From a virus (Duplodnaviria; Heunggongvirae; Uroviricota; Caudoviricetes): DNA of 20,713 nt. Below are positions 1,185 through 20,713 of the stretch, in pieces. The notes below the pieces were generated by a model. The model did not search any database. It had not been told where the DNA came from and saw only the letters and a list, made by a program, of their open reading frames with translations. Within the stretch, counting starts at the first letter, position 1. Every line of letters begins with the position of its first letter. The position numbers and the translations under genes were made by a program. Where the stretch lies: the IMG/VR virus record IMGVR_UViG_2703718869_000003, positions 1 to 20,713 of that record. One strand, written 5' to 3'.

Positions 1185-1750
1185 GCGGCCTCACTTCTGC
1201 TGTTTCGCAGGTCTTTAAGTTTCTGCTGATACTTCGCCTTGATCGCCCTGCATTCTTCGACAGTCCAGCGATGGCGGTTATGGTTCGATTCGATTTCGTC
1301 TACTGCTTCCTGCCCGATGCGGTTAATCAGTTCGACGCGATACGGAACGAGATTTCCGCTTTTGTACTGGTTACACACCACGCATTGCTTATGGATATTG
1401 CGTTCATCAAATCTGAGCTGAGGTGCCGCAGCTGTTGTACGGTAATGGCCTGCATCCCACTGGGCTGAATCGAACGTCCCGCATGAAACACACGGCAAAT
1501 GACGGTCCCGCTCCCTGATATAAGCATTCACAGCCTGTTGTGCCTGCTTAATCCAGTAACTGCGGGGCTGTAAGTCCCTCCTGCGCGCTTTCAGCTTGTC
1601 TGCCTGCTCTTTTGCTGAAGCTATCGCCTTTTCTTTTCTGACCAGTTCCAGTGCGCACTGACCACAGCAAACTTTCTGATATGAGCGGAACGGCACAAAC
1701 GAGGAGCCGCACACTTTGCATTTTTTTGGTTTACGTTGCTTCATCATCAC
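1181..1750 (-). CDS. ninG: NinG/Rap-like recombination-promoting nuclease (structure-specific endonuclease)
   Basis: 189 aa with Cys clusters; the segment [30 protein letters not shown]...[65 protein letters not shown] matches lambda NinG as I recall it. Confidence 0.9.
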
Positions 1751-1751
1751 C

Positions 1752-2201
1752 TCAGAAAAACGACAGCAGGCGGTTATTCAGTTCAGGATTGTTTGAGCGC
1801 CCGAACACATGTTTTAACGCGGCATTAATCATTGCGTTGTAGCAACGTTCAAACTCATCCTGATCCATATTCGCGTAACTCAGGCTTTTTGCCCGATATC
1901 TCACCTCGCCTCTTATGGTTGTGACCACATCATAGAACCCGGCAAGAATTGTCAGATTTTTACGAAACTCATCAAACTGCGTCGCTTCATCAGAGAATTC
2001 GTATCCAGCATGTTCAGCGCACCAGTACTGAAAGCAGAAATTAAGAAAAGCGAACATCTTCCGGTGAAAAGATGGGTTACGGGTAAGTTTTGCTTCCAGT
2101 GTATACAGCTCACCGTTTTTAAATTTTGCCAGTCGGGGTAAATCGCGCTCATACGCCGGTACAAATACGCCATTAGCCGCCTTGATCATCTCTATTTCCA
2201 T
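1752..2201 (-). CDS. Phage protein, DUF1367-like (assignment from memory), function unknown
   Basis: 149-aa ORF coupled to its neighbours (1-nt gaps or overlaps) in the nin-region position. The family assignment is recollection only. Confidence 0.7.
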
Positions 2202-3172
2202 CAGGCAGCCTCCGCTTTGAATTTGCGCGTCAACACATGTTCACGGGCTTCACACCCCTGAATGAGCATGTCGTTAAAATCCGGCAAGTCAGGCCAGCGA
2301 ATGCTGACCTTCTCAACGTCATTACGACTCATGAGATTCTTATGCCCACATTTAAAGGCAGCCGCCAGACCTGCGCCGTGCTCATCATTGTCTGCAAAGA
2401 TAATCAGGTGATTAACGCCTGGTGGCGCAATAAACTTCTCCATAAAACCGGAGTTCATTGTTGACCACACATTGCAGCGGAAGATTTGACGGCATGAAAG
2501 CGCAGTTTCGATACCCTCGGCTATCCCCAGAGTGGACGACACCGGATACAGGCGTATTGCCACCGATTTGGCATGCTGCAAACCAGGCAACTCCTGTAGC
2601 GCGGTCATTTTTTTAGCCGCCTCTACATTCGCCTTGCGATCACCATCCAGCAACGTACGATGCAGATAGCAAAGAGAACCTCTGTCATCTGTTGCAATGG
2701 CGTAAATTGCCTGATATTCGCGCCCGCTGGCGATCTGACGGTCACAAAAACGCACGGATTCGGTCGGTAACTGGAGTATTCCCCTCCCCTGCAGGTACGC
2801 CTCACCTGTTGTGCCCCGCAGACACGGGAGTCCGGCAAACTTATCCATGACCAGCTCCCGCTTTCTGCTTATCTCTGTTACAGGCTGGCTGACTTTCTCC
2901 CTCTTCCAGGTATTTCCGATCAGCCGATCGATTTCATCACACAACGTCACCCAGGGCTTACCCGTGGCAAGTTGCAACAACTTCATCCCGTCCCCGTGAC
3001 CACAGACACAAATCCATGAACCGGAACAATCCTTATCATCACAGCGAAATTTACCTCTGGCACCACATATCGGGCAGGGGCCGCTATAATGTTTCAAGCC
3101 AGTAACAGGAGGCATGCCGTAATATTCAAAAATTCGCCCCCAATGCCCGGCCGCTGCCTTCTTAGTCTGCAT
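2201..3172 (-). CDS. DNA primase-like protein: N-terminal Cys-rich zinc ribbon plus Toprim domain
   Basis: Cys cluster CPICGARGKFRCDDKDCSGSWICVCGHGDG. Toprim-like acidic motifs IAEGIETALS and IIFADNDEHGAG. Overlaps the helicase gene by 11 nt. Confidence 0.8.
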   Translation of the reverse strand: MQTKKAAAGHWGRIFEYYGMPPVTGLKHYSGPCPICGARGKFRCDDKDCSGSWICVCGHGDGMKLLQLATGKPWVTLCDEIDRLIGNTWKREKVSQPVTEISRKRELVMDKFAGLPCLRGTTGEAYLQGRGILQLPTESVRFCDRQIASGREYQAIYAIATDDRGSLCYLHRTLLDGDRKANVEAAKKMTALQELPGLQHAKSVAIRLYPVSSTLGIAEGIETALSCRQIFRCNVWSTMNSGFMEKFIAPPGVNHLIIFADNDEHGAGLAAAFKCGHKNLMSRNDVEKVSIRWPDLPDFNDMLIQGCEAREHVLTRKFKAEAA

Positions 3173-4682
3173 GCTGGCCTCCTGTCATGGCTTTCTTGCG
3201 CCCTTTGGCATAGGCAATGGTCTTTGACTTGATGAAGTTGTACACTTCAACTGAGGTTTGCAGCGGCGCATTACTGAAGCCTTTAGGCCACACACCGAAC
3301 TTCTCCTTGTAGGTATGAGCGCACCATCCGTCACTCAGGGGTTTACCCGTCGCGTTGCGGTAATTCTGATAACCCTTGATCTCACTCCACCAACGCTGTT
3401 TTTCCTCACGGGTGTATTCGCGTTTCCCTTTGTTGACGCGTGAAAGCTTACGATCGCGATCTGTCGCCACGTCATCACCACCAAGTGGGCGAAATCCACA
3501 TTTGGGACACATGTGTACACCAGCAGGCTTCATGAAGTGGCATTTGGGGCATTCTCTGGGAAGTTTTTCAGCTTTAACCTCGCCACCGCCAGCAGACGCT
3601 TTCATTCCGTCATTTTTTCCCGGAAGTTCGTCATACTCGATATCCTCGGGGAAGCCCAGCCGATGAACCGTACCGGAATGGTCGAAAATCAATGCGCGTT
3701 TTTTACCAGACGCAGTACGTAACGCTCTCCCGATGCACTGCAACCAGCGGATTTCTGATTTGGTCGGACGGGCGTAGATCAGGCAGCGAACATCGCTGTC
3801 AAATCCCGCAACCAGTACGCCGACGTTGACAATTATTTTGGTCGCACCATCTTCAAAACGGCGAATGATATCCTGCCGTTCATCATGGGGGGTATCTGCC
3901 GTCATCACCTCTGCGCCAATGCCAGACTGTAAAAACTCACGGGTAACAAAGTTCGCATGAGCCACGTTCACGCAGAAGCAGATCGTCGGTAAATCCTCGC
4001 CATTCTCAAGCCAGTTGCTAACGATATCGCCAACCAGATCCGAACTCCCCATGATGGATGCGAGCTGTTCCTCGTTGTAATCCCGTCCAAATACGGTGTT
4101 ACTGGTTTTTACGCCAGTCAGATCAGGCATTGAGGGGGCAAAAAACTCGTAATCGCTCAGATCACCACGCTGAATAAGTTCACGAATCGTTGTAGGCTTG
4201 ATCAGGCATTCGTAGTACTTCCCCATCCAGGCTGCGAATGGGGTGCCGGAAAGTCCAAGAACCCTGATGTCTCTGTCCCGGATAACCTCAAGTAACGCAC
4301 GACGCTTCATGTGTGCTTCATCGATGATCAGCAGATCGATGTTGTCAGGAAACTCACGACGGATCAGCGTGTCGGCACTGGCAATCTGAATCAGTCGTGA
4401 CGGGTCATAGTTAGGGTGATCACGCCATACAAAACTGATTTCTTCCCACGGTAAACCGTATTCGGTGAAACGTTCCGCTGTCTGGTTCAGCAGGATGGTG
4501 TACGGACAGACAAACATCACCCGCATACCACGTTCAACCATTCCGGCGGTGACGAATGCTGCAAGACCAGTTTTGCCAGAGCCAGTGGGTGCGTACATCA
4601 AGTACGTGCGATGCTGTTTCCACTGGTGCCGCAGCTGGTTTAAACCGCGCTCCTGAGCAAAGTTTGGGATTATTTTCAGCAT
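3162..4682 (-). CDS. Superfamily-2 (DEAH-type) replicative helicase with C-terminal Cys4 zinc finger
   Basis: Walker A APTGSGKT, motif II LLIIDEAH, and CPKCHF...CPKCGF Cys4 pair. 506 aa. Sits in the position of lambda O/P. Confidence 0.9.
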   Translation of the reverse strand: MLKIIPNFAQERGLNQLRHQWKQHRTYLMYAPTGSGKTGLAAFVTAGMVERGMRVMFVCPYTILLNQTAERFTEYGLPWEEISFVWRDHPNYDPSRLIQIASADTLIRREFPDNIDLLIIDEAHMKRRALLEVIRDRDIRVLGLSGTPFAAWMGKYYECLIKPTTIRELIQRGDLSDYEFFAPSMPDLTGVKTSNTVFGRDYNEEQLASIMGSSDLVGDIVSNWLENGEDLPTICFCVNVAHANFVTREFLQSGIGAEVMTADTPHDERQDIIRRFEDGATKIIVNVGVLVAGFDSDVRCLIYARPTKSEIRWLQCIGRALRTASGKKRALIFDHSGTVHRLGFPEDIEYDELPGKNDGMKASAGGGEVKAEKLPRECPKCHFMKPAGVHMCPKCGFRPLGGDDVATDRDRKLSRVNKGKREYTREEKQRWWSEIKGYQNYRNATGKPLSDGWCAHTYKEKFGVWPKGFSNAPLQTSVEVYNFIKSKTIAYAKGRKKAMTGGQHAD

Positions 4683-5062
4683 GACGCCCCCTTGCTACGT
4701 GATTTACCCGTTGCCGGGATCACGTCGATCTCATCGCTAACGTATTGATCCGGATTACGTGAACAGCGCAGAAGCACGATACCAGGAATGCCGTATAGCT
4801 TGAGTCTGCGCAGTTTCAGTATTGAACGTGCCCGTGGTGACGCTCTGTCCACCTCGATCGCGCACCGTTCACCAGATGGGGCAACGACCATGATATCGAC
4901 GAATCCGCGCTTACCGTTGCCCATATCAACCAGATAATTACGTTCGATCGCCAGTCCGGCATCACGCAATTTGGCAGCCAGCACATAATCAAACGTGACC
5001 TTGTCTTTTCCGGTGTAGAATTTGTTTCCGAGCAGGCTGATAACCACATGTTTGATGAACAT
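4676..5062 (-). CDS. Hypothetical protein, first gene of the replication cluster; possible PD-(D/E)xK-like fold (speculative)
   Basis: 128-aa ORF overlapping the helicase start by 7 nt. The segment GFVDIMVV...CAIEVDR loosely resembles a nuclease-like beta-strand motif; this is weak. Confidence 0.6.
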   Translation of the reverse strand: MFIKHVVISLLGNKFYTGKDKVTFDYVLAAKLRDAGLAIERNYLVDMGNGKRGFVDIMVVAPSGERCAIEVDRASPRARSILKLRRLKLYGIPGIVLLRCSRNPDQYVSDEIDVIPATGKSRSKGASC

Positions 5063-5894: not shown

Positions 5895-6608
5895 ATGAAC
5901 ATGAAAAAGAAACCGTTAACCCCTGAGCAACTGGAAGACGCCAAGCGTCTGAAAAGTATTTTTAACGCTAAAAAGAAAGAGTTAGGCCTGTCGCAGGAAT
6001 CATTAGCCTATGAATTAGGTGTTACCCAAAGCGCTGTTAATCAGCTAATGGCTGGCATCAACGCCATAAATGCCAGCCACGCAGCACAGCTTGCTAAGAT
6101 ACTGAATGTAAAGGTCGGAGATTTCAGTCCCAGCCTGGCAAAATCTATTGCAGAAATGGCGCTCGCAATTGAAGAGCCATTAACTCGTGTCCCCGCTTAC
6201 GAATATCCGTTACTCTCCTGCGTACAAGCTGGCGCATTCTCAATGGATGATATTTCGTACACCGCAAAAGATGCGATTAAATGGATCTCCACCACCACAA
6301 AAGCCAGTGACAGGTCGTTCTGGCTGGAGGTCAAGGGGCATTCAATGACCGCACCGCAGGGTGGTAAACCCAGCTTCCCTGAAGGTATGCTGATACTCGT
6401 TGACCCTGAACGGGAAATCGAGGATGGCGATTTTTGCGTGGCCCGAATGAACGGCGATGAATTTACCTTCAAACGATTCATTCGTGAGAGCGGTAAAGCG
6501 TACCTGGAGCCGCTCAACCCACGATTCGACATGATTGAGTGTAACGAAAACTGCCAGTTTGTCGGAAAGGTCATCAAATCGCAGTGGAATGATGAGACTT
6601 TTGATTGA
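5895..6608 (+). CDS. cI: CI repressor (lambda cI-like; HTH N-domain plus S24 LexA-like autopeptidase C-domain)
   Basis: Starts [38 protein letters not shown]. Ala-Gly cleavage context VQAGAFS. C-domain [32 protein letters not shown]...[11 protein letters not shown] is close to lambda cI. Confidence 0.95.
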
Positions 6609-6702: not shown

Positions 6703-8172
6703 ATGCTTCAAAAGCTAGACGTCGCAGACAGCGTGCGTCGCGAGCTGTCTCCCCGTACCGCGCGTAAACACAAAGCTGAGTTCGGCCAGTTCATGACGCC
6801 TTCTGGCGTGGCCCGTTTTATGGCCTCCTTGTTTCCACCGAGCACAATGAAAACTTGCCGTCTACTGGACGCAGGCGCTGGTGTAGGCGCACTGTCTTGC
6901 GCCTTCCTCGACCGTTGGCTGGTTGGCGAGTTTGGCTTTGAGTCTGTCGAGGCAACAGCCTACGAAATAGACAAAAAGCTGTGTGGTCACCTTGCGAAGC
7001 ACTTAACCGGGTACAGGAGAGTGACGCCCCGCATCATCGAAGGGGATTATATTGAGCTGGCAACCGCCGAAGGTCTACAGGATCGAGGTTATACCCATGC
7101 AATACTTAATCCGCCTTACAAGAAGATCAATAGCCAGTCAGCCCACCGGCAGGCTCTTCGCACTGTCGGTATCGAGACGGTAAATCTGTATTCCGCCTTT
7201 GTTGCACTGGCTGTAGGTGAGGTTGCACCTGGCGGGCAGATAGTGGCCATAATCCCACGTAGTTTCTGCAACGGACCGTATTACCGTCCGTTCCGTAATT
7301 TCATACTTGAGCGGGCAGCAATCCGCCATATTCATTTGTTCGAATCACGTAGCAAAGCTTTCAGGGATGACGATGTGTTGCAGGAAAATATTATCATCCG
7401 CCTGGAGCGTGGAGGCCTTCAGGAGGCTGTTACAGTCACAACTTCGACCGATGATAGCTTTTTTGACCTGGTCACCTACGAACACCCATTTGACCAAATT
7501 GTGTACCCGGACGATTCGGAGCGGTTTATTCATGTGCCGACCACGCACGAGAAAAGCGCCATTGAGTTATCATCCGCCGTACAATGTTCGCTGGCTGATA
7601 TTGGCGTGAAGGTATCGACCGGACCGATAGTTGATTTCCGACTGAAAGCTCATTTGCGCAGCATGCCCGAAGAAGGAACTGTTCCCCTGATCTACCCGAG
7701 CCATTTGAGTATGAGTAGCACTGTCTGGCCTGTGGAAGGTTTGAAGAAACCCAACGCAATCATGCGCAACGACGAGACAGAAAAGTGGCTTTACCCGAAC
7801 GGTTTTTATTGTGTGGTGCGTCGTTTCTCGTCGAAGGAGGAAAAGCGCCGAGTGGTAGCAAGCGTCGTTGATCCTGCTACCTTCAGTGAGTATTCAGTGT
7901 TGGGATTTGAAAATCACATGAACGTGTTTCATGAGAACAAACATGGGTTACCCGAGGCGCTGGCCCGTGGCTTGGCCGTGTTCCTGAACACTACCGCAGT
8001 GGATAAGTATTTCCGTCGATTCAACGGGCATACACAGGTCAATGCAACCGACCTCAAGATGATTAAGTACCCAAGCCGTGACACTCTGATAGAGCTTGGC
8101 AAGTGGGCTATGCAACAAGAAACTCTCACGCAAGAACATATTGACGCTAAGCTAGGAGCTCTGACTGCATGA
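6703..8172 (+). CDS. N6-adenine DNA methyltransferase (NPPY class); putative M subunit of a PstI/BsuBI-like type II restriction-modification system
   Basis: FxTP motif (FGQFMTPSGVARFM), AdoMet-binding LLDAGAGVGAL, catalytic NPPY (HAILNPPYKK). 489 aa, about the size I recall for M.PstI/M.BsuBI. AAGAGG ribosome-binding site. Confidence 0.85.
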   Translation: MLQKLDVADSVRRELSPRTARKHKAEFGQFMTPSGVARFMASLFPPSTMKTCRLLDAGAGVGALSCAFLDRWLVGEFGFESVEATAYEIDKKLCGHLAKHLTGYRRVTPRIIEGDYIELATAEGLQDRGYTHAILNPPYKKINSQSAHRQALRTVGIETVNLYSAFVALAVGEVAPGGQIVAIIPRSFCNGPYYRPFRNFILERAAIRHIHLFESRSKAFRDDDVLQENIIIRLERGGLQEAVTVTTSTDDSFFDLVTYEHPFDQIVYPDDSERFIHVPTTHEKSAIELSSAVQCSLADIGVKVSTGPIVDFRLKAHLRSMPEEGTVPLIYPSHLSMSSTVWPVEGLKKPNAIMRNDETEKWLYPNGFYCVVRRFSSKEEKRRVVASVVDPATFSEYSVLGFENHMNVFHENKHGLPEALARGLAVFLNTTAVDKYFRRFNGHTQVNATDLKMIKYPSRDTLIELGKWAMQQETLTQEHIDAKLGALTA

Positions 8173-9122
8173 ACAACCAAAATGATTATATTGAGGCCGC
8201 TCAGCAAATTATAGCATCCTTAGGCCTGCCCAGAGCGCAGCAGAATGAGCGTTCTGCTTTGTGTTTGCTGGCACTCCTGAACCTCACACCGGGAAAAGCA
8301 TGGGCCAACGCGGAAAATCCGCTTGTGGGCATTACACCAATCATGAATTGGGTTCGGGAGCACTACGGCAAGGTCTACGCACCCAATACTCGTGAGACAT
8401 TCCGCCGCCAGTCTATGCATCAGTTCTGCGCTGCTGGAGTAGCCCTCTACAATCCGGACAAGCCCGATCGCCCAGTGAACAGCCCGAAGGCTGTTTATCA
8501 GATCGAACCTGCTGCTCTGTCCATGCTACGCACTTTCGGCAGCCCGGCATGGCACGATAGCCTTGCAACCTATTTAGCCGAGCGTGAAACGCTGGTTACC
8601 CGCTATGCTAAGGAGCGCGAACAGAATCGTATCCCTGTTGAAATTGCTGCGGGCCAGCAAATAACCCTCAGTCCCGGCGAGCACAGCGAACTTATCCGTG
8701 CCATAATAGAGGACTTCGCCCCACGTTTTGCTCCGGGTAGCGTGCTGGTCTATGCTGGCGACACTGGCGAAAAGTGGGGCTACTTCGACGCTCCACTGCT
8801 GGCCGGGCTAGGTGTTGATGTGGATTCACACGGTAAAATGCCAGATGTGGTGCTACATTTTACTGCGAAAAACTGGCTGCTACTGGTTGAGTCTGTCACC
8901 AGTCATGGACCGGTTGATGGGAAGCGGCATGCTGAGCTTGCCAGGCTGTTTGCCGGATCAACAGCCGGACTTGTCTATGTGACCGCTTTTCCAAATCGCT
9001 CCATCATGGGACGATATCTTGGTGAAATCGCATGGGAAACAGAGGTATGGGTGGCTGATGCACCTTCTCATCTTATTCACTTCAACGGAGTACGATTTCT
9101 TGGCCCCTACTCTACTGAATGA
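8169..9122 (+). CDS. Putative type II restriction endonuclease, BsuBI/PstI family (assignment by size, synteny and motif; not verified)
   Basis: 317 aa. Start overlaps the methyltransferase stop (ATGA). Contains a PD...E-like segment (GKMPDVVLHF...NWLLLVESVTSHG). Followed by an intrinsic terminator. Confidence 0.55.
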   Translation: MNNQNDYIEAAQQIIASLGLPRAQQNERSALCLLALLNLTPGKAWANAENPLVGITPIMNWVREHYGKVYAPNTRETFRRQSMHQFCAAGVALYNPDKPDRPVNSPKAVYQIEPAALSMLRTFGSPAWHDSLATYLAERETLVTRYAKEREQNRIPVEIAAGQQITLSPGEHSELIRAIIEDFAPRFAPGSVLVYAGDTGEKWGYFDAPLLAGLGVDVDSHGKMPDVVLHFTAKNWLLLVESVTSHGPVDGKRHAELARLFAGSTAGLVYVTAFPNRSIMGRYLGEIAWETEVWVADAPSHLIHFNGVRFLGPYSTE

Positions 9123-9385: not shown

Positions 9386-9689
9386 TCTGGAGCTTTACAG
9401 CGTCAATGACCTGTTTAGACCCCTACACGTAAACGTGCTGTATCATCGGGTGCGATCCGGTCGATGAGAGAGTATCCCCGCGCGAGAGCGAGAACGGCGT
9501 GAGAACGGGCAACACTGGCAGGAAGTTGGCGCTGACCAATACAGGGAAGGTTTTGGGGTGCAGGCAGCACCGCCAAAGCATTTCCGAGAAAGGATGGTAT
9601 TGACTGCGTGTGATGTCGGGGCTATATTTGGCGAACACCTCATAAAACGGGTGTCGGGATTAGGACCCCGCTGACAATCGAGGCGATAC

Positions 9690-9711
9690 AGACGCGCTAG
9701 CGTCTTTTTTT
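9690..9711 (+). terminator. Rho-independent terminator (tL-like) in the pL leader
   Basis: Stem AGACGC / GCGTCT with GCTA loop, followed by a run of 7 T. Confidence 0.7.
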
Positions 9712-9876
9712 GTATCGACATGCACGCACATCTTATCAATGGTGGGCTGTATGGGGCCGACTTCGGTCGGGCTGGTTCCCTTGATTGCCAGTAGTCCTAA
9801 CCCTGTACAGTCCACCGCCAGCGAGTTTAGGACCTCCGGCGGTGGTTATCAATCACCAATCAAGGAGGCTGCCACC

Positions 9877-10521
9877 ATGGCTACTATATCTCCCCTTTCT
9901 CGCCCATCCGTAACTATTGAAAACGGCAATGCCATCACTACGTCAATTGACATCGCAGAGTTCTTTGAGAAGCAGCATCACCATGTTGTTCAGAAAATAG
10001 AATCCCTTGAATGCTCTGAACAATTCTTAACCAGCAACTTTTCGCGGGTTAAATTCGAACACCGGGGTAATACCTATAACGCCTATCAAATCACCAAAAA
10101 CGGCTTCGTCTTCCTGGTGATGGGCTTCACTGGTAAAAAAGCCGCCGCTTTCAAAGAAGCCTACATCGCTGAATTCGATCGCATGGAAAAACAGCTATGG
10201 GAACAGAAACAACTGGCCCTGTCTTCTCCTGCGATGAATATCAATTTCCCTTTGTCGTGGTTTTCTGAGCATCACCCCTACGCCACGATGAATTATGTTG
10301 ATCGAAAAACATTGCAGCTTGATACCTCCGTCTTATTCGACATGCCAAGCCCTGCAATGCGCATATTTAATGAATTACGTCGCAACGGCTATAACGTTGA
10401 CGCCGCTGTCGCTGAATTTAACGCCTTCAAACATCTGACGGAAGAAATGCGCCGTACACTACAGGATATTTCAAGATTGTCAGATCAAAATGCCCGAAAA
10501 GGCTTCTCTGTAAGCCTCTAA
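9877..10521 (+). CDS. Rha-family phage regulatory protein / antirepressor-like, with a C-terminal domain shared with the next gene
   Basis: Start chosen at the ATG at 9877 (AAGGAGG 8 nt upstream) rather than the ORF-track start at 9739. N-terminal region ITTSIDIAEFFEKQHHHVVQKIE...YQITKNGFVFLVMGF resembles the Rha family from memory. Confidence 0.75.
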   Translation: MATISPLSRPSVTIENGNAITTSIDIAEFFEKQHHHVVQKIESLECSEQFLTSNFSRVKFEHRGNTYNAYQITKNGFVFLVMGFTGKKAAAFKEAYIAEFDRMEKQLWEQKQLALSSPAMNINFPLSWFSEHHPYATMNYVDRKTLQLDTSVLFDMPSPAMRIFNELRRNGYNVDAAVAEFNAFKHLTEEMRRTLQDISRLSDQNARKGFSVSL

Positions 10522-11499: not shown

Positions 11500-11712
11500 A
11501 TGCTCAAACCTCACTACGGAACCGCATTAGTTTCTCGCGAGGACGTTAAACCCGGTACAGCAATTCTTTACAACGGGCGTTATTACATGGCGTCAGCGAA
11601 CGTTAATAATGCACTTTACGCACATTCACTGATTGAAAAAATTCGCATTATCTCAGATGCAATAGAAGTTTACCTGAACAATAAAGGACAACCGTTAATC
11701 TCACCAGCCTGA
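11500..11712 (+). CDS. Hypothetical small protein (early-left accessory gene)
   Basis: 70-aa ORF with GGAGG ribosome-binding site at 8-nt spacing. Confidence 0.55.
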   Translation: MLKPHYGTALVSREDVKPGTAILYNGRYYMASANVNNALYAHSLIEKIRIISDAIEVYLNNKGQPLISPA

Positions 11713-11723
11713 AAGGAAATATC

Positions 11724-12005
11724 ATGCTCAATCAAAAAATAAATATCAATGTAAAAAGCGTCGTAACTCCAGCAGGAACGATAATGGGAGAAGTTTTTAT
11801 GGATGATAAAATCATCGCCTATTTTGTCGTCCTGCCTGATGAGGCTATTTCTGTTATTGATACGGAAGGCAATGTTATGTTTATCGCGGAACATCCAGAA
11901 GACATCGCATTACAGGCCGCTGCATATTTCTTTGCTAAAGAGCAGGAGGAAGAATGTAACTGCCCTGTCTGTCAGCTTTCCCGACAAATTAATTTAATGC
12001 ATTAA
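11724..12005 (+). CDS. Hypothetical small protein with a C-terminal CxCPxC motif
   Basis: 93-aa ORF in series with its neighbours; AT-rich. Confidence 0.55.
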   Translation: MLNQKININVKSVVTPAGTIMGEVFMDDKIIAYFVVLPDEAISVIDTEGNVMFIAEHPEDIALQAAAYFFAKEQEEECNCPVCQLSRQINLMH

Positions 12006-13961: not shown

Positions 13962-14548
13962 TGGATGAAGTGATTTTTACTTATAACGAAGAATCAGCAC
14001 TGACCGCCGGACAAGGTGGTTTTATTACCGAAACGGGTGCGCATATCATTAACATCACCGAAGCAGAACTCAAGCAATCAGAAAAAGGTGCCCGATTCAT
14101 TGAGTTTTCTGGAGAATCCGACGACGGACGGAAAATCCAATATCTCAGTGTTTGTGTTCAGAAGAATGACGGCACTGAAAATAAATTTGGGGCGAGCATT
14201 ATTCACGCCATGATGGGATGCACAGGAATTGGGCAGTTAACGCAGCATATGGTTTCCGTCAGTAAATATGTTGCACCTGAGTTTCACGGAAAGAAAATCG
14301 GACTCGTCCTCCAGAAAGTATTAACCACAAACAGAAAGACTGGCGCAGACGGTTACCAGATGGAAATCTGCATTCCATTCATTGCAGAAACAGGGCAGAC
14401 ACTGAAAGAAAAAGCTGAAGGAAAGAAACCAGAAACGGTAGCAAATATGGTTTCCACTCTCAAAGACAAAGACAATCGCAGAAAAAACGTAAACCCGAAT
14501 CACACGGACGCCCCGGGTTACTGGCAGTACGGCAGCGATAGTTTTTAA
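13961..14548 (+). CDS. Hypothetical protein coupled to exo (1-nt overlap); function unknown
   Basis: 195-aa ORF. No motif I can assign. C-terminus ends ...GYWQYGSDSF. Confidence 0.6.
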   Translation: MDEVIFTYNEESALTAGQGGFITETGAHIINITEAELKQSEKGARFIEFSGESDDGRKIQYLSVCVQKNDGTENKFGASIIHAMMGCTGIGQLTQHMVSVSKYVAPEFHGKKIGLVLQKVLTTNRKTGADGYQMEICIPFIAETGQTLKEKAEGKKPETVANMVSTLKDKDNRRKNVNPNHTDAPGYWQYGSDSF

Positions 14549-14622
14549 TTCACAAACAAAACCAGGCTTTAAATGCAGTGAACAACTGAAGCCTTAACAC
14601 ACCTCTACACGGAGATATTAAT

Positions 14623-14970
14623 ATGAACCAGCATCAAACTGATGTTAATGTTTTCATTAACGACCTCGACGGCGGGGTATTTGTAAACAAACTTGGTGCG
14701 GTATTAAGTGAAGTTGCCTTTGGCGTAAACAGCACAAACAAAAAAGGAAAGGTATGTGTTGAATTCGAATTATCTTCACTTGATGAAAATCGCGTATCAG
14801 TTTCCCATAAACTAAAATTCACACGCCCGACAATGCGTGGTAGTAAATCAGAAGAAGACACAACTAACACCCCGATGTTTGTAAATAAAGGTGGTGAGCT
14901 TACTTTGTTCCAGAAAGACCAGGGGCAGCTTTTTGATAAACAGGGCCAACATGACGCTGTTTTACGCTGA
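14623..14970 (+). CDS. Hypothetical protein
   Basis: 115-aa ORF; GGAG about 8 nt upstream of the ATG. Confidence 0.55.
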   Translation: MNQHQTDVNVFINDLDGGVFVNKLGAVLSEVAFGVNSTNKKGKVCVEFELSSLDENRVSVSHKLKFTRPTMRGSKSEEDTTNTPMFVNKGGELTLFQKDQGQLFDKQGQHDAVLR

Positions 14971-15033
14971 ATAATCCCCGCCTTAAAACGCTCGCGCATT
15001 ATCCCTAAATACATAAATTAAAGTTAAATATAC

Positions 15034-15855
15034 ATGTCTCAGTTAGATAGCAATGCCATTAAAGAAATTGTAAAACTCACCACTACTGCTTTTTCTGGTG
15101 AAAATTTGCCGCTTACGGAATGCCCTGTTGCGTTATTGCCGGACAATGTAAATATCGAAAGTCTGGAACGATTCATGACAGAACGTTTTCGTTTCCGTGG
15201 AGTCATGACCACAACCAGTATTGATGACTTTGTTGAATACAGCAAAGGGTATGCCGATGAGCACTCCCGCTGCTTCATTAACGCGGAAACGATGAAAGCA
15301 GTCACTGTGTTCAATATCGGCACTCTGGAGCAACCTGGACACGCTGACAACAAGGCACTGCTGGAACTGAAAGCCACATCACCATATCGCGCATTGCTTG
15401 AGGTGGACGGCAAAAAACAACTCCAGAAATCTCTCGCTGAATGGCTGGAAGACTGGGCCGACTTCCTCACAGCCTGTGACAGCGACGGTAATGTGCTGGA
15501 TATCAAACAGGCTATCTCTGCTGTCCGTCGTCTTACCATCGACGCAAAACGCAGTGCTGAATATGAAGAGCAAAACTTCAGCGGTAGCCGCTCAGTCATG
15601 GAGTCCGTTGAGGCTAAAAGCAAAGAAATCATGCCTGCCACTTTCCGCTTTGAATGCATCCCATACGAGGGCCTGGGCAACAGGGAATTCACGCTGCGAT
15701 TAAGCATTCTGACAAGCGAACAACCTGTTCTGGTGCTACGTATCGTGCGTGTTGAAGCTGCGGAAGAAGAAATTGCCAAAGAGTTCCGTGACCTGCTGAA
15801 AGAGCGTTTCGAAGAAGAAGATATCTTAACCTTCATCGGCACGTTCTCAGTGTGA
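15034..15855 (+). CDS. DUF2303 / YfdQ-like prophage protein (assignment from memory)
   Basis: 273-aa ORF with protein-like composition. The fully antisense 267-aa ORF (15039-15842) is Ser/Arg-rich and judged spurious. Confidence 0.7.
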   Translation: MSQLDSNAIKEIVKLTTTAFSGENLPLTECPVALLPDNVNIESLERFMTERFRFRGVMTTTSIDDFVEYSKGYADEHSRCFINAETMKAVTVFNIGTLEQPGHADNKALLELKATSPYRALLEVDGKKQLQKSLAEWLEDWADFLTACDSDGNVLDIKQAISAVRRLTIDAKRSAEYEEQNFSGSRSVMESVEAKSKEIMPATFRFECIPYEGLGNREFTLRLSILTSEQPVLVLRIVRVEAAEEEIAKEFRDLLKERFEEEDILTFIGTFSV

Positions 15856-15931
15856 TGAAATCTGTGACAGGGACGTCACGACATATCGCTCATATTTCAC
15901 GAGAAAATACACAGTTCTTGGAGGGTATACT

Positions 15932-16408
15932 ATGCAATTTAAAGATTTACCAGAGGATATTCAGAAAATAGCTGCGGATACGCTTAAAGACCATTTATCG
16001 GTGATAAATTTAACAAAGGAACCAAAGGCGAATCTGGAAAATATATCCCGTAACATGCGAGATGTTTTTGTCGGGATGTATGCTTATGACAATGAAAAGC
16101 ACGAGGAACATATTCAAAATTGCCGCCTTAATAAAGGACAACAAAACATCAAACACAATATAACAGAAAACGACAAATCAATTAATTCTGTTGAAAGAGT
16201 GAATAATTCGCAGAAAACAGACCCATTGGTATTCTGGAATATCGTTCAGGCTTTTGCCTTGAGCAAGGTGTATGAGTTTAACAACATCAATCATTCAGGG
16301 ATCGACACTCATCAATCATCACATCGTGAGGGGGTGTCCATGCTTCTGTCTCTGTTACAAGAGCAAGGCGAATATCCTCAGCCGACATCAAACGATACTG
16401 AGCAATAG
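15932..16408 (+). CDS. Hypothetical protein encoded by a markedly AT-rich gene (candidate moron)
   Basis: 158-aa ORF, Asn/Lys/Ile-rich, visibly lower GC than its flanks. Ribosome-binding site GGAGGG. Flanked by intergenic regions on both sides. Confidence 0.6.
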   Translation: MQFKDLPEDIQKIAADTLKDHLSVINLTKEPKANLENISRNMRDVFVGMYAYDNEKHEEHIQNCRLNKGQQNIKHNITENDKSINSVERVNNSQKTDPLVFWNIVQAFALSKVYEFNNINHSGIDTHQSSHREGVSMLLSLLQEQGEYPQPTSNDTEQ

Positions 16409-16515
16409 TCTATTCTCGTACGCTGCAACGTGAGGTCGTACCCCGGACACGGGTAAACATCCGGCAATTCCAGCTTACCACCTATTTAACCCCCTCCCCG
16501 TAACGAGACGAAGAA

Positions 16516-17394
16516 ATGAGCACTCATCATGTTGTGAGTTTTTCAGGCGGTCGGACATCGGCGTACCTCGTCCACCTTATGGAGCAACGCAGAAAAGCTG
16601 GTGAAAACGTTCATTACATACTCATGGATACGGGATGTGAACACCCGCTGACGTACCGATTTATTCGGGAGGTTGTGAAGTTCTGGGATATTCCGCTAAC
16701 CGTGTTGCAGGTCGATATAAATCCAGAGCTTAGGCAGCCAAATGGTTATACGGAATGGGAACCAAAGGATATTCAGACGCGAATGCCGGTGCTTAAACCG
16801 TTTATGGACATGGTAAAAAAATATGGCACGCCATACATCGGCGGCGCGTTCTGCACTGACAGATTAAAACTCACCCCCTTCACAAAATACTGCGATGACC
16901 ATTTCGGACAAGGGAACTACATCACGTGGCTGGGTATTCGTGCAGACGAACCCCGTAGGCTGAAACCGAAACCGGGCGTCCGGTATCTTGCCGAACTGTC
17001 AGATTTTGATAAGTCGGATGTTATCCGGTGGTGGCGAAAACAACCTTTTGATTTGCAAATCCCGGAGCACCTCGGGAACTGTGTTTTCTGCATCAAAAAG
17101 TCAACGCAAAAGCTGGGGCTTGCATGTAAAGACGAACCTGGTCTGATGCGGGTTTTTAATGAACTGGTTACAGGCAAACACGTCAGGGATGGTCATCGCA
17201 GAACAGGTAAAGACGTTATGTACCGTGGTCACCTGACGCTTGACGGGATTGCCAGGATGTATGCCGACAGCGACTACAGCAATTTGTATCAAGCGATGGT
17301 GCTGGCCAAGCGGTTTGATACTGGTTCGTGTTCCGAATCATGTGAAATCTGGGGTGACCAATTGGAGTTGAAATTCGAAGAGGTAGTGGCATGA
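16516..17394 (+). CDS. Phosphoadenosine-phosphosulfate (PAPS) reductase-family protein (PP-loop ATP pyrophosphatase fold)
   Basis: N-terminal PP-loop VVSFSGGRTSAYL. 292 aa. First gene of a chain of start/stop-overlapping ORFs. Confidence 0.8.
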   Translation: MSTHHVVSFSGGRTSAYLVHLMEQRRKAGENVHYILMDTGCEHPLTYRFIREVVKFWDIPLTVLQVDINPELRQPNGYTEWEPKDIQTRMPVLKPFMDMVKKYGTPYIGGAFCTDRLKLTPFTKYCDDHFGQGNYITWLGIRADEPRRLKPKPGVRYLAELSDFDKSDVIRWWRKQPFDLQIPEHLGNCVFCIKKSTQKLGLACKDEPGLMRVFNELVTGKHVRDGHRRTGKDVMYRGHLTLDGIARMYADSDYSNLYQAMVLAKRFDTGSCSESCEIWGDQLELKFEEVVA

Positions 17395-17594
17395 CAATCG
17401 TAAAAACCCATACCGGCATTGTGATCACCAAAGGCGGCCCGCAGGTAAAAAAACTTCACCAGACAGAGCGGATGTGGGTCGTCGGCAAAAACGAGTTTTA
17501 CCACAAAGAAACCGGACGCCGCCACTTTGCAGAAAATACGCGCCGCAGACTGCTGATCGACACAATCAAGCCTGTCGAGGTGAAGCATGTTTAA
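17391..17594 (+). CDS. Hypothetical small protein (ATGA overlap with the PAPS-reductase-like gene)
   Basis: 67-aa ORF, translationally coupled on both sides. Confidence 0.5.
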   Translation: MTIVKTHTGIVITKGGPQVKKLHQTERMWVVGKNEFYHKETGRRHFAENTRRRLLIDTIKPVEVKHV

Positions 17595-17826
17595 ACAGAA
17601 CGAAAAATCTATCGCTCAAATTGCTGAGTATATCCCGCGTACGTGCCGGGGTATGCAGTTGCAGGAAGCCAAAGCGCGCCTGGAGAAAAAAATTGCGCTC
17701 TATATCGATGACGGCTGTGATGCTGCCGTTCTTAACGCGGCTTTCGCACCAGCTCTTAACTGTCATACGCGGGAATCTTTTTTTTCGTGCATCGCAGCGC
17801 AGATCCACAAAGGAGGCAACCAGTGA
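17587..17826 (+). CDS. Hypothetical small protein ending in ...KGGNQ
   Basis: 79-aa ORF. Its 3' end carries the conserved junction CAAAGGAGGCAACCAGTGAGC that forms the start of the next gene. Confidence 0.5.
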   Translation: MFKQNEKSIAQIAEYIPRTCRGMQLQEAKARLEKKIALYIDDGCDAAVLNAAFAPALNCHTRESFFSCIAAQIHKGGNQ

Positions 17827-18587
17827 GCAAAATTGACTATCAGGTATTGCGTGACGTGTCGGAACGCGCAATTACAGCGATGACACATCTGTCAATATTA
17901 CCAGGTGATGATGATTTATTAAGCGAAAAGAAGCTCAAGGAGCTTGGTATTGATATTGATGCGATTCACGCCTTTAAAATTATGGCCGGGCCAGAAACCG
18001 TGCTGTCACTACTGGATGAACGAGATGCATTAAACGAACGCATGGCCGAACTGGAGGCTAATTTAGCGAAGCTGGCCGAAGACCAACAGAAAGCGATTGA
18101 GTCAATTAAGCAGGCTGATTCGGCTGTTAAGTTGGCACACGAGAAGTTTTCGGCTCTGGCGGCGGAGAATGCGGAGTTGAAGGCCTTCAAAACAGCAGTT
18201 TATCAGCAGATGGGCGTCGGATGTGATGCTCCTGAATTCTCCATTACGGTAGGTTTGAGTAACTTACGTCGTTTTGCTGACACACTCCACGCCATTGAGC
18301 GTGAGTTCTTTACCAAAGAGCTACCTGATGAAGAGCACGAAGGCGAAACATTCAATGAATGTCCACTTAGCTGGGGAATGAGCGTCGAACAGTACGTTTC
18401 CGAGTTTCGCAAATGCCTGGCTGAAGTACGGGCGCAGGGCGTGGAGATGCTGGCAAAAAATCATCAGAGTATCGTCAATGCACTTAAGGGAGATTCTTTA
18501 TTTTCTGATGGTGAATACCGGCATGCAATTATCGCTTCCGCAGCAACATCTTTCGCCGCTGAGCTTCGCAAAGGAGGCAACCAGTGA
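17823..18587 (+). CDS. Ea22-like protein (coiled-coil), GTG start
   Basis: GTG at 17823 preceded by AGGAGG at 6-nt spacing. N-terminus VSKIDYQVLRDVSERA. Central heptad-like region (LNERMAELEANLAKLAEDQQKAIESIKQ). Ends ...LRKGGNQ. Confidence 0.7.
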   Translation: MSKIDYQVLRDVSERAITAMTHLSILPGDDDLLSEKKLKELGIDIDAIHAFKIMAGPETVLSLLDERDALNERMAELEANLAKLAEDQQKAIESIKQADSAVKLAHEKFSALAAENAELKAFKTAVYQQMGVGCDAPEFSITVGLSNLRRFADTLHAIEREFFTKELPDEEHEGETFNECPLSWGMSVEQYVSEFRKCLAEVRAQGVEMLAKNHQSIVNALKGDSLFSDGEYRHAIIASAATSFAAELRKGGNQ

Positions 18588-19132
18588 GCGAAATTAATTA
18601 CCAGGCACTGCGTGAGGCGGCAGTAGCAATTGAAACAGTAGCAACGCCTCAAAAATTGCTGGCATTTCGTATGAAAGCCACACCTCAGGTTGTGCTGGCG
18701 CTACTGGATGAGTTGGAAGCAGCAAAATCAAAACTCAACGAGCAGCGTGAGTATTACGAGGGAGTAATCGCGGATGGAAGTAAGCGCATAGCCGAACAGG
18801 AGAAAAGCGAAGAGCAACTCATTAATGAGCGTGACCATGCTGAGTCTGCTTTAGCTGATATGTATTTTGCAGCAACCGGGGACAGGCCGGAATGGAGTAA
18901 CTGTTTCAGTTTTTCAGATGCAGTAGATGCCGTGGTTGACAGAATTGCTGATTTAGAAGCTAAACAGGCATCGCCAGTAGTACCGGAAGAACTGATTAAA
19001 GCAGTGCGCTTTTATGAACAGGTAAAGCGTGAGAATCCATCTGTTGAAACCGGAGCATGGAAAGACGCTGTTGACTGGGTACTCAAAGAGGCTTGCCAGG
19101 CTGTAAGCATTCGCATCAAAGGAGGTGAGTAA
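18584..19132 (+). CDS. Ea22-like protein (second copy, divergent)
   Basis: MSEINYQALREAAV...AKSKLNEQREYYEGVIADGSKRIAEQEK resembles lambda Ea22 from memory. Same GTGA-overlap junction as the previous gene. Confidence 0.7.
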   Translation: MSEINYQALREAAVAIETVATPQKLLAFRMKATPQVVLALLDELEAAKSKLNEQREYYEGVIADGSKRIAEQEKSEEQLINERDHAESALADMYFAATGDRPEWSNCFSFSDAVDAVVDRIADLEAKQASPVVPEELIKAVRFYEQVKRENPSVETGAWKDAVDWVLKEACQAVSIRIKGGE

Positions 19133-19287
19133 TGCGTGTGGCATGTATCGGCTTGTTACCGTATCCGACTCGTTTTTGGGCTTCTGCGCTAATTGCAAAG
19201 AACATCATCCCGACACCAAAGCGCCGCCATACCGGTATTGCAGCGGCACGACGAGCAGCAAAGAGATGCAGGAGAGCAAAACGATGA
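19132..19287 (+). CDS. Small highly basic ORF (51 aa)
   Basis: Not in the ORF track. ATG at 19132 overlaps the upstream stop (TAATG), with AGGAGG at 6-nt spacing. Translation MRVACIGLLPYPTRFWASALIAKNIIPTPKRRHTGIAAARRAAKRCRRAKR. An alternative reading is the 115-aa frame (19125-19472). Confidence 0.4.
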   Translation: MRVACIGLLPYPTRFWASALIAKNIIPTPKRRHTGIAAARRAAKRCRRAKR

Positions 19288-19472
19288 AAAACCGTAAAGC
19301 AAAGATTCTGTTAGTTCGTAGAAACGCTCCTGGCGTCTGGCAGTGGGTGAGACTCAGCAACCGACGGATGGGGTTGATGAAATATTACGGGATGATGGAT
19401 TGTGGTTTTTGCAAAAAGCCCAGCGCGGAGCAAAACCGCTGGAAAAACCACTTGCGCACTAAAGGAGAGTGA
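19284..19472 (+). CDS. Small hypothetical protein (62 aa)
   Basis: ATG at 19284 with AGGAGAG 7 nt upstream, overlapping the stop of the 51-aa ORF (ATGA). It is the 3' part of ORF-track entry 19125-19472. Confidence 0.45.
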   Translation: MKNRKAKILLVRRNAPGVWQWVRLSNRRMGLMKYYGMMDCGFCKKPSAEQNRWKNHLRTKGE

Positions 19473-19473
19473 T

Positions 19474-19683
19474 ATGGCTATTGCTGCAAGTTACACCATG
19501 CATCTCTATTGTGATTGCCTCCAGTGTACAGATGGCAAATATAAGTCGCCAGACTTCGGTGAGTATATAGGTACGTCATGGGCTGGCTGTGCAAAAGAGG
19601 CGCGCAAGGATGGCTGGCGAATAAGCAAAGACAAAACGCGTGCTTTTGCGCCCGGGCATAAAGTTTTGAGGATTAACAAATGA
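19474..19683 (+). CDS. Small Cys-containing hypothetical protein (69 aa)
   Basis: ATG at 19474 with AAGGAGAG upstream. Sequence MAIAASYTMHLYCDCLQCTDGKYKSPDFGEYIGTSWAGCAKEARKDGW.... Confidence 0.5.
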   Translation: MAIAASYTMHLYCDCLQCTDGKYKSPDFGEYIGTSWAGCAKEARKDGWRISKDKTRAFAPGHKVLRINK

Positions 19684-20713
19684 CCACTATTACCAAAGAG
19701 CGACTGCTGACAATCAAGCAGTGGCGCGAAACATACGGACCTGGTAGCAACGTTGTACTGCCAGCAGAAGAAGCGGAAGAACTGGCACGGATTGCTCTGG
19801 CATCGCTGGAAGCAAAACCAATAGGTGCATTTCACATTGCAGAACAGCAAGTTGACGGCACAAGTGACTACATCAAGGATGGGGAGTGGCCTATTGATAA
19901 TGGGACAATTGAAGTATACGCCGCCCCTCCAGCGCCAGTAGTACCGGAAGAAAAACCAATGCCTAACCCTCTTGGCATGTACGCGGTTGATGCTGTTGCT
20001 GCTATTGCAGAGGTGAGAGGCTGGAACGCCTGCCGCGCCGCCATGCTTCAGTCCGGAAACTTTCGGGAAAACAATAATTCGTCAACCAATAATTTTCGGG
20101 AAATCGCGGAAACGTCAACCAACTATCCGATAATTCCTAGTGAGGTGTTGTCCGCAATCCTGAAGGTTGCCAAGATTCGTGCCGATTTCGATGATTTTGA
20201 CGGTGACAGGCGAGGTATCGGTGATTGTCTGGATGAGGCTGAGCAAGAGCTTATCGTTACCATTAACAAATATGCCAGTCAGTTGGCAGCAGAACCGATA
20301 GCGACTAATGACGTTCGAGAGCAAACAGCCGTTCCGCCAGTTCCTGTAATACAGGCTGATGTCGCGCAGGCAATTGAAAAACTCAAACGGAAATTAGTGG
20401 AATGCAATCGCTATAACTACTGCGCAGATGCAGTTAAGGGCGTTGAGTATGCCTGCCACGCTGCCATGCTTCAGGGTAGCCAACCTGTAAGCCAAACTTA
20501 CAAGTTTCCAGTTAATACACCTTGCCAGGATGCGCCAGCCCATATCTGGCTGCAAACAGCTGGAGTATGGCCAGAAGATGGCGAGTTAAGCGAATTAACG
20601 TGGTGCAGCCACAATCAGCACCATGATGACACGCTATATGTTCGAGCTGACTTGGTAAATGGCAATTCTCCGGTAACTCCGGATGGTTGGATAAGCTGTA
20701 GTGAGCGAATGCC
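19680..20713 (+). CDS. Long hypothetical protein, 3'-truncated by the window end (at least 344 codons open)
   Basis: Absent from the ORF track because no stop occurs before the window end. I translated it codon by codon from ATG 19680 (ATGA overlap with the previous stop) and found no stop through 20713. Contains internal repeats. Confidence 0.65.
   Translation, partial: MTTITKERLLTIKQWRETYGPGSNVVLPAEEAEELARIALASLEAKPIGAFHIAEQQVDGTSDYIKDGEWPIDNGTIEVYAAPPAPVVPEEKPMPNPLGMYAVDAVAAIAEVRGWNACRAAMLQSGNFRENNNSSTNNFREIAETSTNYPIIPSEVLSAILKVAKIRADFDDFDGDRRGIGDCLDEAEQELIVTINKYASQLAAEPIATNDVREQTAVPPVPVIQADVAQAIEKLKRKLVECNRYNYCADAVKGVEYACHAAMLQGSQPVSQTYKFPVNTPCQDAPAHIWLQTAGVWPEDGELSELTWCSHNQHHDDTLYVRADLVNGNSPVTPDGWISCSERM

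Follow-up and report, generated by a model that had tools for sequence, protein, structure and literature searches.

A phage lambda ninC ortholog within the early-left operon of an Escherichia coli prophage and its proposed role in phage counter-defence

We analyzed a 20,713-nucleotide stretch of viral DNA (Caudoviricetes; IMG/VR record IMGVR_UViG_2703718869_000003), referred to here as the window, and focused on the gene at 16516..17394 on the + strand, which runs from ATG to TGA and encodes a 292-residue protein with the features of a PP-loop ATP-pyrophosphatase of the 3'-phosphoadenosine 5'-phosphosulfate (PAPS) reductase superfamily. The gene is orthologous to ninC of phage lambda. We tentatively propose that NinC is a DNA-acting counter-defence enzyme of phages, most probably directed against phosphorothioate-dependent restriction by Dnd systems and possibly by Ssp or BREX type 4 systems. 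The proposal draws on the constraint on the PP-loop, on kinship with enzymes of DNA phosphorothioation, on fusions of NinC-family proteins to methyltransferases, and on the Dnd escape associated with a fused homologue. A preliminary description of the same DNA had pointed out both this gene and the AT-rich open reading frame (ORF) that precedes it; the underlying observation was confirmed, and the interpretation as a whole was partly supported.

Identity of ninC and conserved features of its product

A tblastn search aligned residues 5-292 of the window protein (99% of its length) with NinC of Lambdavirus lambda at 79.5% identity, and the match to phrog_424, the lambda NinC family, extended over residues 2-291 with an E-value of 9.7e-93. 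The protein, whose N-terminus reads MSTHHVVSFSGGRTS..., was 99-100% identical to the products of genes annotated NinC in PA2-like and VT2phi_272-like Shiga toxin (Stx) phages. The gene does not encode a novel stand-alone enzyme; it is the classical lambda ninC. Gene, neighbours and arrangement are already known at 99-100% identity from public genomes under the classical name, and nothing in the window itself is new, since all of these are common in sequenced Stx-type prophages. Among 50,697 phage records, 565 contained a homologue, and these covered T1-like and Chi-like phages as well as many Vibrio phages. A search of 5426 complete E. coli genomes with window positions 15800-17600 recovered ninC-like DNA from 886 of them. 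Plasmids carried 179 of the 1018 matching places in the E. coli genomes, so ninC-like genes are common there too; these plasmid copies may represent phage-plasmids. The GC content of ninC (48.7%) equals that of the window (48.7%), and its ratio of nonsynonymous to synonymous polymorphism (pN/pS) of 0.09-0.17 revealed strong purifying selection. In four Stx2a phage records (LC727854, LC727848, LC727865 and LC727870), only the last 54 ninC codons are kept, at 100% identity, and one chimeric protein (P0020) joins NinC residues 1-~232 to a DUF551 C-terminus; ninC has thus been repeatedly truncated or recombined in this region.

The lambda gene is dispensable; its apparent essentiality in CRISPR interference mapping was gone once a plasmid supplied Q (PMC10695390). 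A 2024 paper still named the PAPS-reductase homologues of lambda and other phages as deserving further investigation (PMC11437467). Our literature searches returned no relevant paper on the direct function of NinC, and ninC is among the few lambda genes without a function in the literature that we found.

To place the protein within its superfamily, we compared it with curated profiles. Pfam PAPS_reduct (PF01507) was the sole Pfam domain of the 292-residue protein, with a score of 35.2 bits against a gathering threshold of 22.5 and a match confined to residues 5-71. The NCBIfam CysH models remained below their cut-offs (NF002537, 23.6 bits against 154; TIGR00434, 16.5 against 165.1), as did the DndC model TIGR03183 (17.4 bits against 290.4), and the TilS model scored 14.8 bits. 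A regular-expression search of window NinC did not find the catalytic CysH motif ECG[LI]H, and its C-terminus reads DTGSCSESCEIWG.... Among the defence-system profiles of PADLOC, SspD gave the best match (E-value 6.3e-15, 53.6 bits), but just profile positions 1-121 of 277 were aligned; the DndC models scored 18 bits (~2e-4), and BrxP reached 15.4 bits (1e-3) over residues 5-58 only, against a 779-position profile. The same comparison was made with 109 family representatives clustered at 50% identity, in which SspD was matched by 108 of the 109, BrxP by 44 and DndC by 16, with alignments restricted to the N-terminal half. By these profile scores, SspD appears to be the nearest defence-system relative of NinC, and not an ortholog. 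An identity as CysH, DndC or BrxP was rejected, every curated cut-off having been missed by a wide margin.

The modeled structure was compared with solved structures and with predicted viral proteins. The fold-comparison values were highest for an adenosine 5'-phosphosulfate (APS) reductase (2goy, 12.9), followed by PAPS reductases (12.2-12.5), the [4Fe-4S] thiolase NcsA (12.2), the [4Fe-4S] LarE (12.0), TilS (11.9) and TtuA (11.7). By these values, the model is best described as a generic PP-loop ATP-pyrophosphatase fold, closest to the sulfonucleotide-reductase branch and not distinguishable from sulfur-inserting tRNA enzymes. CysH and APS reductase were the best PDB matches by both sequence and fold, and all matches of a fold search in BFVD were PAPS-reductase-like phage proteins with no name or a generic annotation. 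For the product of the preceding AT-rich ORF, the AlphaFold2 model from a 12-sequence alignment was not usable as a fold (predicted local distance difference test score (pLDDT) 44.5, predicted template modeling score 0.29).

Window NinC has a Rossmann-like α/β fold that carries an N-terminal SGGxxS PP-loop. This loop, S10-G-G-R-T-S15 (16543..16560, +), is the motif that binds the α- and β-phosphates of ATP and is invariant or nearly so in a set of 24 close homologues and in the 109 distant members; SxSGGxTS is its prevailing form family-wide. The earlier assignment to the PAPS-reductase superfamily on the basis of an SGGRTS loop was thus correct, the motif occupying residues 10-15, and the protein is predicted to be an ATP-pyrophosphatase that converts ATP to AMP and pyrophosphate. 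The family motifs SxSGGxTS, DTGxEH, C113, RxDExxR (GIRxDEPxR), GNCxxCxKK and a C-terminal CxxxC are all present in window NinC, and across the 24 and the 109 homologues they show either no variation or a conservation of at least 90%. Residues conserved down to ~30% identity comprise S10, G11, G12 and S15 of the loop, T39, G40, E42, C113, G140, R142, D144, E145 and R148, as well as G187, N188, C189, C192, K195, C272 and C276.

The five conserved cysteines fall into two groups. C189-V-F-C192 (codons 17080..17091, +) lies in the conserved GNCxFCxKK motif and, together with C113 (codon 16852-16854, +), forms a candidate set of metal or iron-sulfur (Fe-S) ligands; C189 is invariant, and at least 90% of the 109 representatives retain C113 and C192. 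The other two belong to C272-S-E-S-C276 (codons 17329..17343, +) in a C-terminal tail that is predicted to be disordered (residues 266-292, pLDDT <50), and both are likewise retained in at least 90% of the 109. By analogy with DndC and with CysH/APS reductase, C113 and C189xxC192 could form a three-cysteine metal or Fe-S site, which we regard as possible, and C272 and C276 are candidates for mobile catalytic cysteines that carry persulfide or sulfur. Absence of catalytic cysteines or of ATP-binding residues had been named in advance as an argument against function; on alignment, both the ATP-binding loop and the conserved cysteines proved to be intact.

Methyltransferase fusions and the proposed role of NinC

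The sole recurrent extra domains among the 109 representatives were N6-adenine DNA methyltransferases, with five matches to PF05869 (phage Dam) and one to PF02086 (D12 class). At least four fusion architectures were recognized, namely NinC-Dam (P0121, P0082, P0110, P0091 and P0100), Dam-NinC (P0124 and P0126), NinC-D12 (P0127) and an insertion-bearing NinC subfamily combined with Dam (P0129 and P0158). Several fused proteins have unfused proteins as their closest relatives, which indicates that fusion occurred repeatedly and independently. These fusions provide our strongest sequence-based argument for an action of NinC on DNA, or at least alongside adenine methylation.

One of the fused proteins has been studied experimentally. 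P0091 is the 479-residue protein p0018 of Vibrio phage 44E38.1 (record MW824392) and is 56% identical to window NinC at 95% coverage. Piel et al. described p0018 as carrying an N-terminal PAPS domain and a C-terminal Dam domain and as one of just two genes specific to phages that infect Dnd-carrying Vibrio crassostreae; when p0018 and p0019 were recombined into a sensitive sister phage, it reached 10^11 plaque-forming units per ml on the Dnd-positive (delta-retron) host (preprint 10.1101/2021.05.05.442762). The p0018 result has since been cited as a phage PAPS reductase that promotes Dnd evasion, and PAPS reductases were found in Aca-regulated anti-defence operons (PMC13551039). A virome preprint also reported AntiDefenseFinder calls of an anti-Dnd gene, 'adnd_p0020'. 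The suggestion of a DNA-modifying or anti-restriction function in the preliminary description was thus a reasonable guess: kinship with SspD, BrxP and DndC, the methyltransferase fusions and the Dnd escape conferred by the cassette that includes P0091 are in line with it. The idea itself is not new, as it has a partial experimental precedent in this 56%-identical Vibrio-phage relative, which is already cited in the recent literature.

The tentative counter-defence proposal can be cast as a mechanism. ATP would be used to adenylate a substrate, which is the likely chemistry, and sulfur would then be delivered by the cysteines in the manner of DndC and SspD, possibly through an Fe-S centre and mobile thiols of the tail that receive sulfur from IscS, a cysteine desulfurase of the host. 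As an outcome, phage DNA would be marked as 'self', or the balance between host modification and restriction would be disturbed. In the fused relatives, the adenine-methyltransferase domain would supply recognition of DNA sites; the stand-alone NinC described here may act alone or with host factors. Lambda itself allows a direct test of the anti-Dnd/Ssp hypothesis on E. coli.

A stronger version, which we consider doubtful, is that NinC is a self-sufficient DNA sulfur-insertion enzyme of the phosphorothioation type that takes sulfur from IscS and is guided to its sites by an adenine methyltransferase. In this version, the guide would be the fused domain in some phages and host Dam or a phage methyltransferase in lambda and the Stx phages. 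If the stronger version were true, lambda-type phage DNA would carry a so-far undetected partial modification of backbone or base that disarms Dnd/Ssp-type restriction, a classical lambda gene would gain a function, and a minimal one-protein phosphorothioation system would be defined.

Several other explanations were weighed against the counter-defence proposal. NinC might modify RNA, most likely tRNA by thiolation or a lysidine-type reaction, so as to tune translation or to shield tRNAs from anticodon nucleases of the host. We consider this unlikely, since the fusion partners come from DNA adenine methylation families, the relatives recovered by defence-family hidden Markov models are SspD, BrxP and DndC, with tRNA-modifying PP-loop enzymes such as TilS scoring lower, and window NinC has no THUMP, PUA or TilS C-terminal RNA-binding domain. 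The sole known phenotype in the family, moreover, is escape from a DNA-based defence.

It is rather unlikely, in our judgment, that NinC is a non-catalytic or partly catalytic decoy, which would titrate the partners of DndC or SspD (IscS/DndA, DndD/E or SspB/C) or bind a restriction module and leave phage DNA unmodified. The resemblance to only the N-terminal half of SspD and the lack of phage-encoded partners are consistent with a decoy, anti-defence proteins often mimic host components, and Dnd escape is compatible with inhibition and modification alike. However, the PP-loop, DTGxEH, RxDE and the five cysteines are kept to ~30% identity at a pN/pS of about 0.1, which argues for retained catalysis, and a decoy would not need to be fused to an active-looking methyltransferase in several independent architectures.

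We regard as improbable a role as an accessory of recombination, replication or the nucleotide pool, for instance in handling damaged or modified nucleotides, with no relation to host defence. Such a role would fit the recombination neighbours seen in both settings of the gene, which are NinB (Orf) to NinG (Rap) in lambda and RecT, exonuclease, SSB-like and DUF2303 genes here. It would also fit the YfdR/YfbR-like HD-domain gene that directly precedes ninC and overlaps its start in many relatives, and the Chi-like setting, where ninC is flanked by ThyX and an annotated nucleoside 2-deoxyribosyltransferase. These neighbours nevertheless vary across phage families, no recombination phenotype is reported in the literature that we found, and the methyltransferase fusions and Dnd escape would be left unexplained.

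Virome studies routinely call NinC homologues 'auxiliary metabolic genes' of sulfur metabolism, which implies a genuine PAPS/APS reductase that boosts sulfate assimilation during infection. The above-threshold Pfam match and the best PDB matches agree with this label, but it is highly improbable and largely refuted by the failed membership tests: the Pfam match is short, the CysH cut-offs are missed, ECG[LI]H is absent and, unlike in CysH/APS-reductase chains, the SGGxxS loop is complete. The label is further disfavoured because SspD is the nearest defence-system relative, methyltransferase fusions recur and point to DNA, as does the phenotype, and an anti-Dnd precedent is published. E. coli, in addition, already has cysH.

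Genomic setting of ninC and its neighbours

The window comes from a lambdoid prophage of E. coli that belongs with the Stx phages of the PA2/VT2phi_272/ArgO145 (Oslovirus) type. Positions 15800-17600 were 97.9% identical to phages of this type and 99.9-100% identical to chromosomes of Shiga toxin-producing E. coli O111:H8 and O157:H7. The early-left (pL) operon occupies the + strand from ~5895 on, and ninC lies inside this long transcription unit, 3' of the RecT, exonuclease, SSB-like and DUF2303 genes. The rightward operon on the - strand (566-4682) encodes an SF2 helicase, a Toprim/zinc-ribbon primase, DUF1367, NinG and Q (566-1075, -), so that the pR-side nin region consists of DUF1367, NinG and Q only. 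Neither NinB nor NinC was found at the usual nin position in this operon, and ninC has therefore changed operon relative to lambda.

The ORF that precedes ninC (15932..16408, +; 158 residues, ATG to TAG) has a GC content of 38.4%, with 40.3% at third codon positions, against 48.7% for the window. The reported AT-richness of this 158-codon ORF was thus confirmed, but three further operon genes are comparably AT-rich (11724-12005, 39.0% GC; 14623-14970, 40.8%; 11500-11712, 42.3%). Its designation as an orphan holds in that no Pfam or NCBIfam domain was found in it and its homologues, sought among 5.8 billion proteins, formed 18 clusters only, all from E. coli; it does, however, belong to PHROG 1363 (phrog_1363, 2.5e-56). 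Its relatives are modular, with an optional insert of ~100 residues or different C-termini, and it is fast-evolving (pN/pS 0.55-0.73). A PADLOC 'CorA-like' match (20.8 bits, E=7.7e-5) was weak and was judged uninformative.

We then compared 80 close loci, defined as viral-contig loci with NinC at least 92% identical, which show the variability of the slot before ninC and not deep conservation of the neighbourhood. The DUF2303/YfdQ-family gene, which encodes 273 residues in the window (15034..15855, +; PF10065, E=1e-65), was found ~1.5 kb 5' of ninC in most of these loci, even at 53% identity, and is a conserved upstream anchor. The gene between DUF2303 and ninC differs among the loci, and the AT-rich ORF is present in 13 of the 80. 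In many loci, the slot gene encodes a YfdR/YfbR-like HD-domain protein, with a stop codon that overlaps the start of ninC and a Pfam score of 24.2 bits, just below the 25.9 cut-off; in others, it encodes an unrelated protein of 230-242 residues starting MKERGMIFNDEMVRAILEGRKTQTRR, without a Pfam match. Examples of slot genes are found at 4462-5010 of locus L025, 4269-4997 of L016 and 4447-5010 of L058. The YfdR/YfbR-like protein is a putative 5'-deoxynucleotidase, and its recurrent coupling with NinC might be functionally meaningful. Because the slot occupant changes between loci, the AT-rich ORF is a cassette restricted to E. coli prophages in a variable slot and not a partner functionally tied to ninC. 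Its recent acquisition, as proposed in the preliminary description, fits the AT-richness and the variable slot but is not proven.

Gene neighbourhood conservation, put forward earlier as a check, was thus borne out for the DUF2303 anchor and not for the AT-rich ORF, and a search for a constant partner gene of NinC in distant relatives, namely T1-like and Chi-like phages, several types of Vibrio phage and a Moritella contig, found none. In the Salmonella Chi-like phage ER24 (L088, 2962-4334), ninC follows an early cluster that contains ThyX, and its stop overlaps a gene annotated as nucleoside 2-deoxyribosyltransferase (Pfam DUF7768); this is a hint that the neighbouring genes deal with nucleotides or DNA modification.

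Between the AT-rich ORF and ninC lies a 107-nt spacer (16409..16515) in which no promoter, terminator or stable RNA structure was detected; promoter- and terminator-like sites across 14400-17600 were not above shuffle expectation, and the spacer did not fold better than shuffled sequences (z-score +0.77). Repeats in 15700-17700 were short two-copy matches only and were taken as chance. The placement of ninC at the head of an accessory operon was therefore not upheld, as no promoter signal was found and the gene lies within the early-left transcription unit.

Downstream of ninC, a series of small and Ea22-like ORFs follows on the + strand. The ninC stop overlaps the start of a 67-residue ORF (17391..17594, phrog_1226) in an ATGA (stop/start 17394/17391), and this ORF shares 8 nt with a 79-residue ORF (17587..17826, phrog_1344; 17594/17587). 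Two Ead/Ea22-like genes with GTG starts come next (17823..18587, PF13935, E=7e-15; 18584..19132, PF13935, E=1e-10), each joined by a GTGA overlap (17826/17823 and 18587/18584). A 51-residue ORF (19132..19287), whose homologues in related loci are 77-98% identical, overlaps the upstream stop by 1 nt (19132/19132), a 62-residue ORF (19284..19472, phrog_1380) follows through an ATGA (19287/19284), and a 69-residue ORF (19474..19683, phrog_926) starts after a 1-nt gap (19472/19474). Finally, a long ORF (19680..20713) begins at another ATGA (19683/19680) and runs past the window end; its final residues are the beginning of a DUF551-type segment, with counterparts in a DUF551 protein of PA2 and in the chimera P0020.

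The chain described earlier, with every start down to 19680 within 1-8 nt of the preceding stop, was thus reproduced at all eight junctions, given the starts 17391, 17587, 17823 (GTG), 18584 (GTG), 19132, 19284, 19474 and 19680 (the last four ATG). The start at 17823 is backed by a phrog_368 match that begins at residue 13 of a longer ORF, and those at 19284 and 19474 by their PHROG matches; the start at 18584 is that of the ORF as listed, and those at 19132 and 19680 follow from ORF structure only. As the four junctions 5' of ninC (14548 to 16516) have gaps of 63-107 nt and those after it are so close, tight packing begins at ninC and the change of gene packing is real. Comparable overlaps of 1-4 nt occur further upstream (8172/8169, 13275/13272 and 13961/13961). 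The pair of 67- and 79-residue ORFs is found after ninC in about half of the 80 close loci, and in the other half an Ea22-like gene directly overlaps the ninC stop.

The change in packing and the recurrence of this ORF pair could be taken to mean that ninC makes up a two-gene unit with the AT-rich ORF, or that it heads its own operon with the downstream ORFs as partners, but this is contradicted by the neighbourhood comparison, in which the AT-rich ORF is mostly replaced by unrelated genes, the ORF pair is missing from half of the loci and distant NinC homologues have none of these neighbours, and also by the absence of promoter and terminator signals from the spacer and its surroundings. The AT-rich ORF and the small downstream ORFs are not components of a NinC system; they would be accessory cassettes in their own right that share the late-pL 'accessory' region with ninC and are packed so as to couple translation.

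Some prophages have xis-like and integrase-like ORFs soon 3' of ninC, recognized by sequence alone. In phage PA2 (L001), a gene for an MT-A70-family adenine methyltransferase is split by an IS3-family element (17095-17490 and 18837-19034); it lies ~6.5 kb 3' of ninC in the same operon, a position outside the window. A ribosomal RNA methyltransferase encoded by a prophage has been described for the strains PA2 and PA8, between whose prophages an IS629 insertion is the difference (PMC10810198); this might be the MT-A70 gene.

Upstream, the early-left operon begins with a cI-like S24/HTH repressor (5895-6608, +), directly followed by a PstI/BsuBI-type restriction-modification pair (6703-9122, +). 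This pair is a complete type II system, consisting of an Eco57I-family methyltransferase of 489 residues and a BsuBI/PstI-family endonuclease of 317 residues, with the stop of the first gene overlapping the start of the second, and is a prophage-borne defence module within the operon. A Rha/Ash-type antirepressor gene (9739-10521, +) comes next, and Rfam matches at gathering level to isrK (9635-9710, +; 64 bits) and C4 antisense RNA (9735-9822, +; 79 bits) lie just 5' of it and overlap its start; this arrangement looks like a P1/P7-style antirepressor switch under antisense control. The further + strand genes are AntA antirepressor, Kil, Gam-like, RecT, exonuclease, SSB-like, a 115-residue protein and DUF2303/YfdQ, followed by the AT-rich ORF and ninC. 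On the other strand, a sok antitoxin RNA match (361-535, -; 118 bits) adjoins the Q gene, implying a hok/sok-type toxin-antitoxin locus beside Q.

Comparison of NinC with known systems

We compared NinC with several known proteins and systems. Chain C of PDB 21fy, 'PptA' (270 residues), was the only solved chain other than CysH and GMP synthase that the family profile found (E=3.2e-6). It aligns with the NinC family at the PP-loop region, a 'CT..LK' segment and an 'NCVxC' motif, but it is distant (diverged members of the family share ~31-37% identity with it across 60 residues) and its PP-loop is degenerate (SCGAPS). Our literature searches found no paper on PptA. A homology search with the PptA fragment yielded two short relatives only (68-79% identical), and PptA relatives lie in inovirus-like contigs (loci L089-L091) with the inovirus genes Phage_CRI, Zot and DUF2523.

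The PP-loop sulfur-insertion enzymes TtuA, NcsA and 4Fe-4S LarE are only 13-15% identical to NinC. In contrast to these enzymes, NinC has no zinc-finger or RNA-binding modules, its substrate class is probably different, and its metal site is only a candidate. The CysH and APS reductases (PDB 1sur, 6vpu and 2goy) carry the ECG[LI]H motif that NinC lacks, and the C-terminal halves are unrelated by sequence. Whereas NinC keeps the full SGGxxS PP-loop, the aligned CysH/APS-reductase chains are degenerate there (SSSFG/SFSGAED).

SspD, DndC and BrxP, from the Ssp, Dnd and BREX type 4 systems, have the superfamily and the canonical PP-loop in common with NinC. DndC holds a 4Fe-4S centre through three cysteines and has further sulfur-carrying cysteines or a cysteine dyad (PMC10853773), and conserved cysteines are present in NinC too. 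BrxP has a large multidomain architecture (PMC12839542), which window NinC does not have. NinC is phage-borne and solitary, with no sspABC, dndABDE or brx neighbours in the window or the 80 loci.

The PAPS domain of 44E38.1 p0018 is a NinC-family member with all family motifs, like the window protein. It lies at a nin-like position (L002), directly 5' of DUF1367 and NinG, and differs in its C-terminal PF05869 Dam domain, which window NinC lacks and which was absent from the window genes scanned. The Dnd-escape phenotype belongs to p0018 and p0019 jointly and not to the PAPS domain alone, and both host and Dnd system are from Vibrio rather than E. coli. Lambda NinC (nin-region ORF-290), the product of a non-essential accessory gene (PMC10695390), resembles the window protein in length (290-292 residues) and in motifs. 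The two genes differ in position: lambda ninC is flanked by ninB and ninF in the pR nin region, and the window ninC lies in the pL operon, 3' of the recombination genes and DUF2303.

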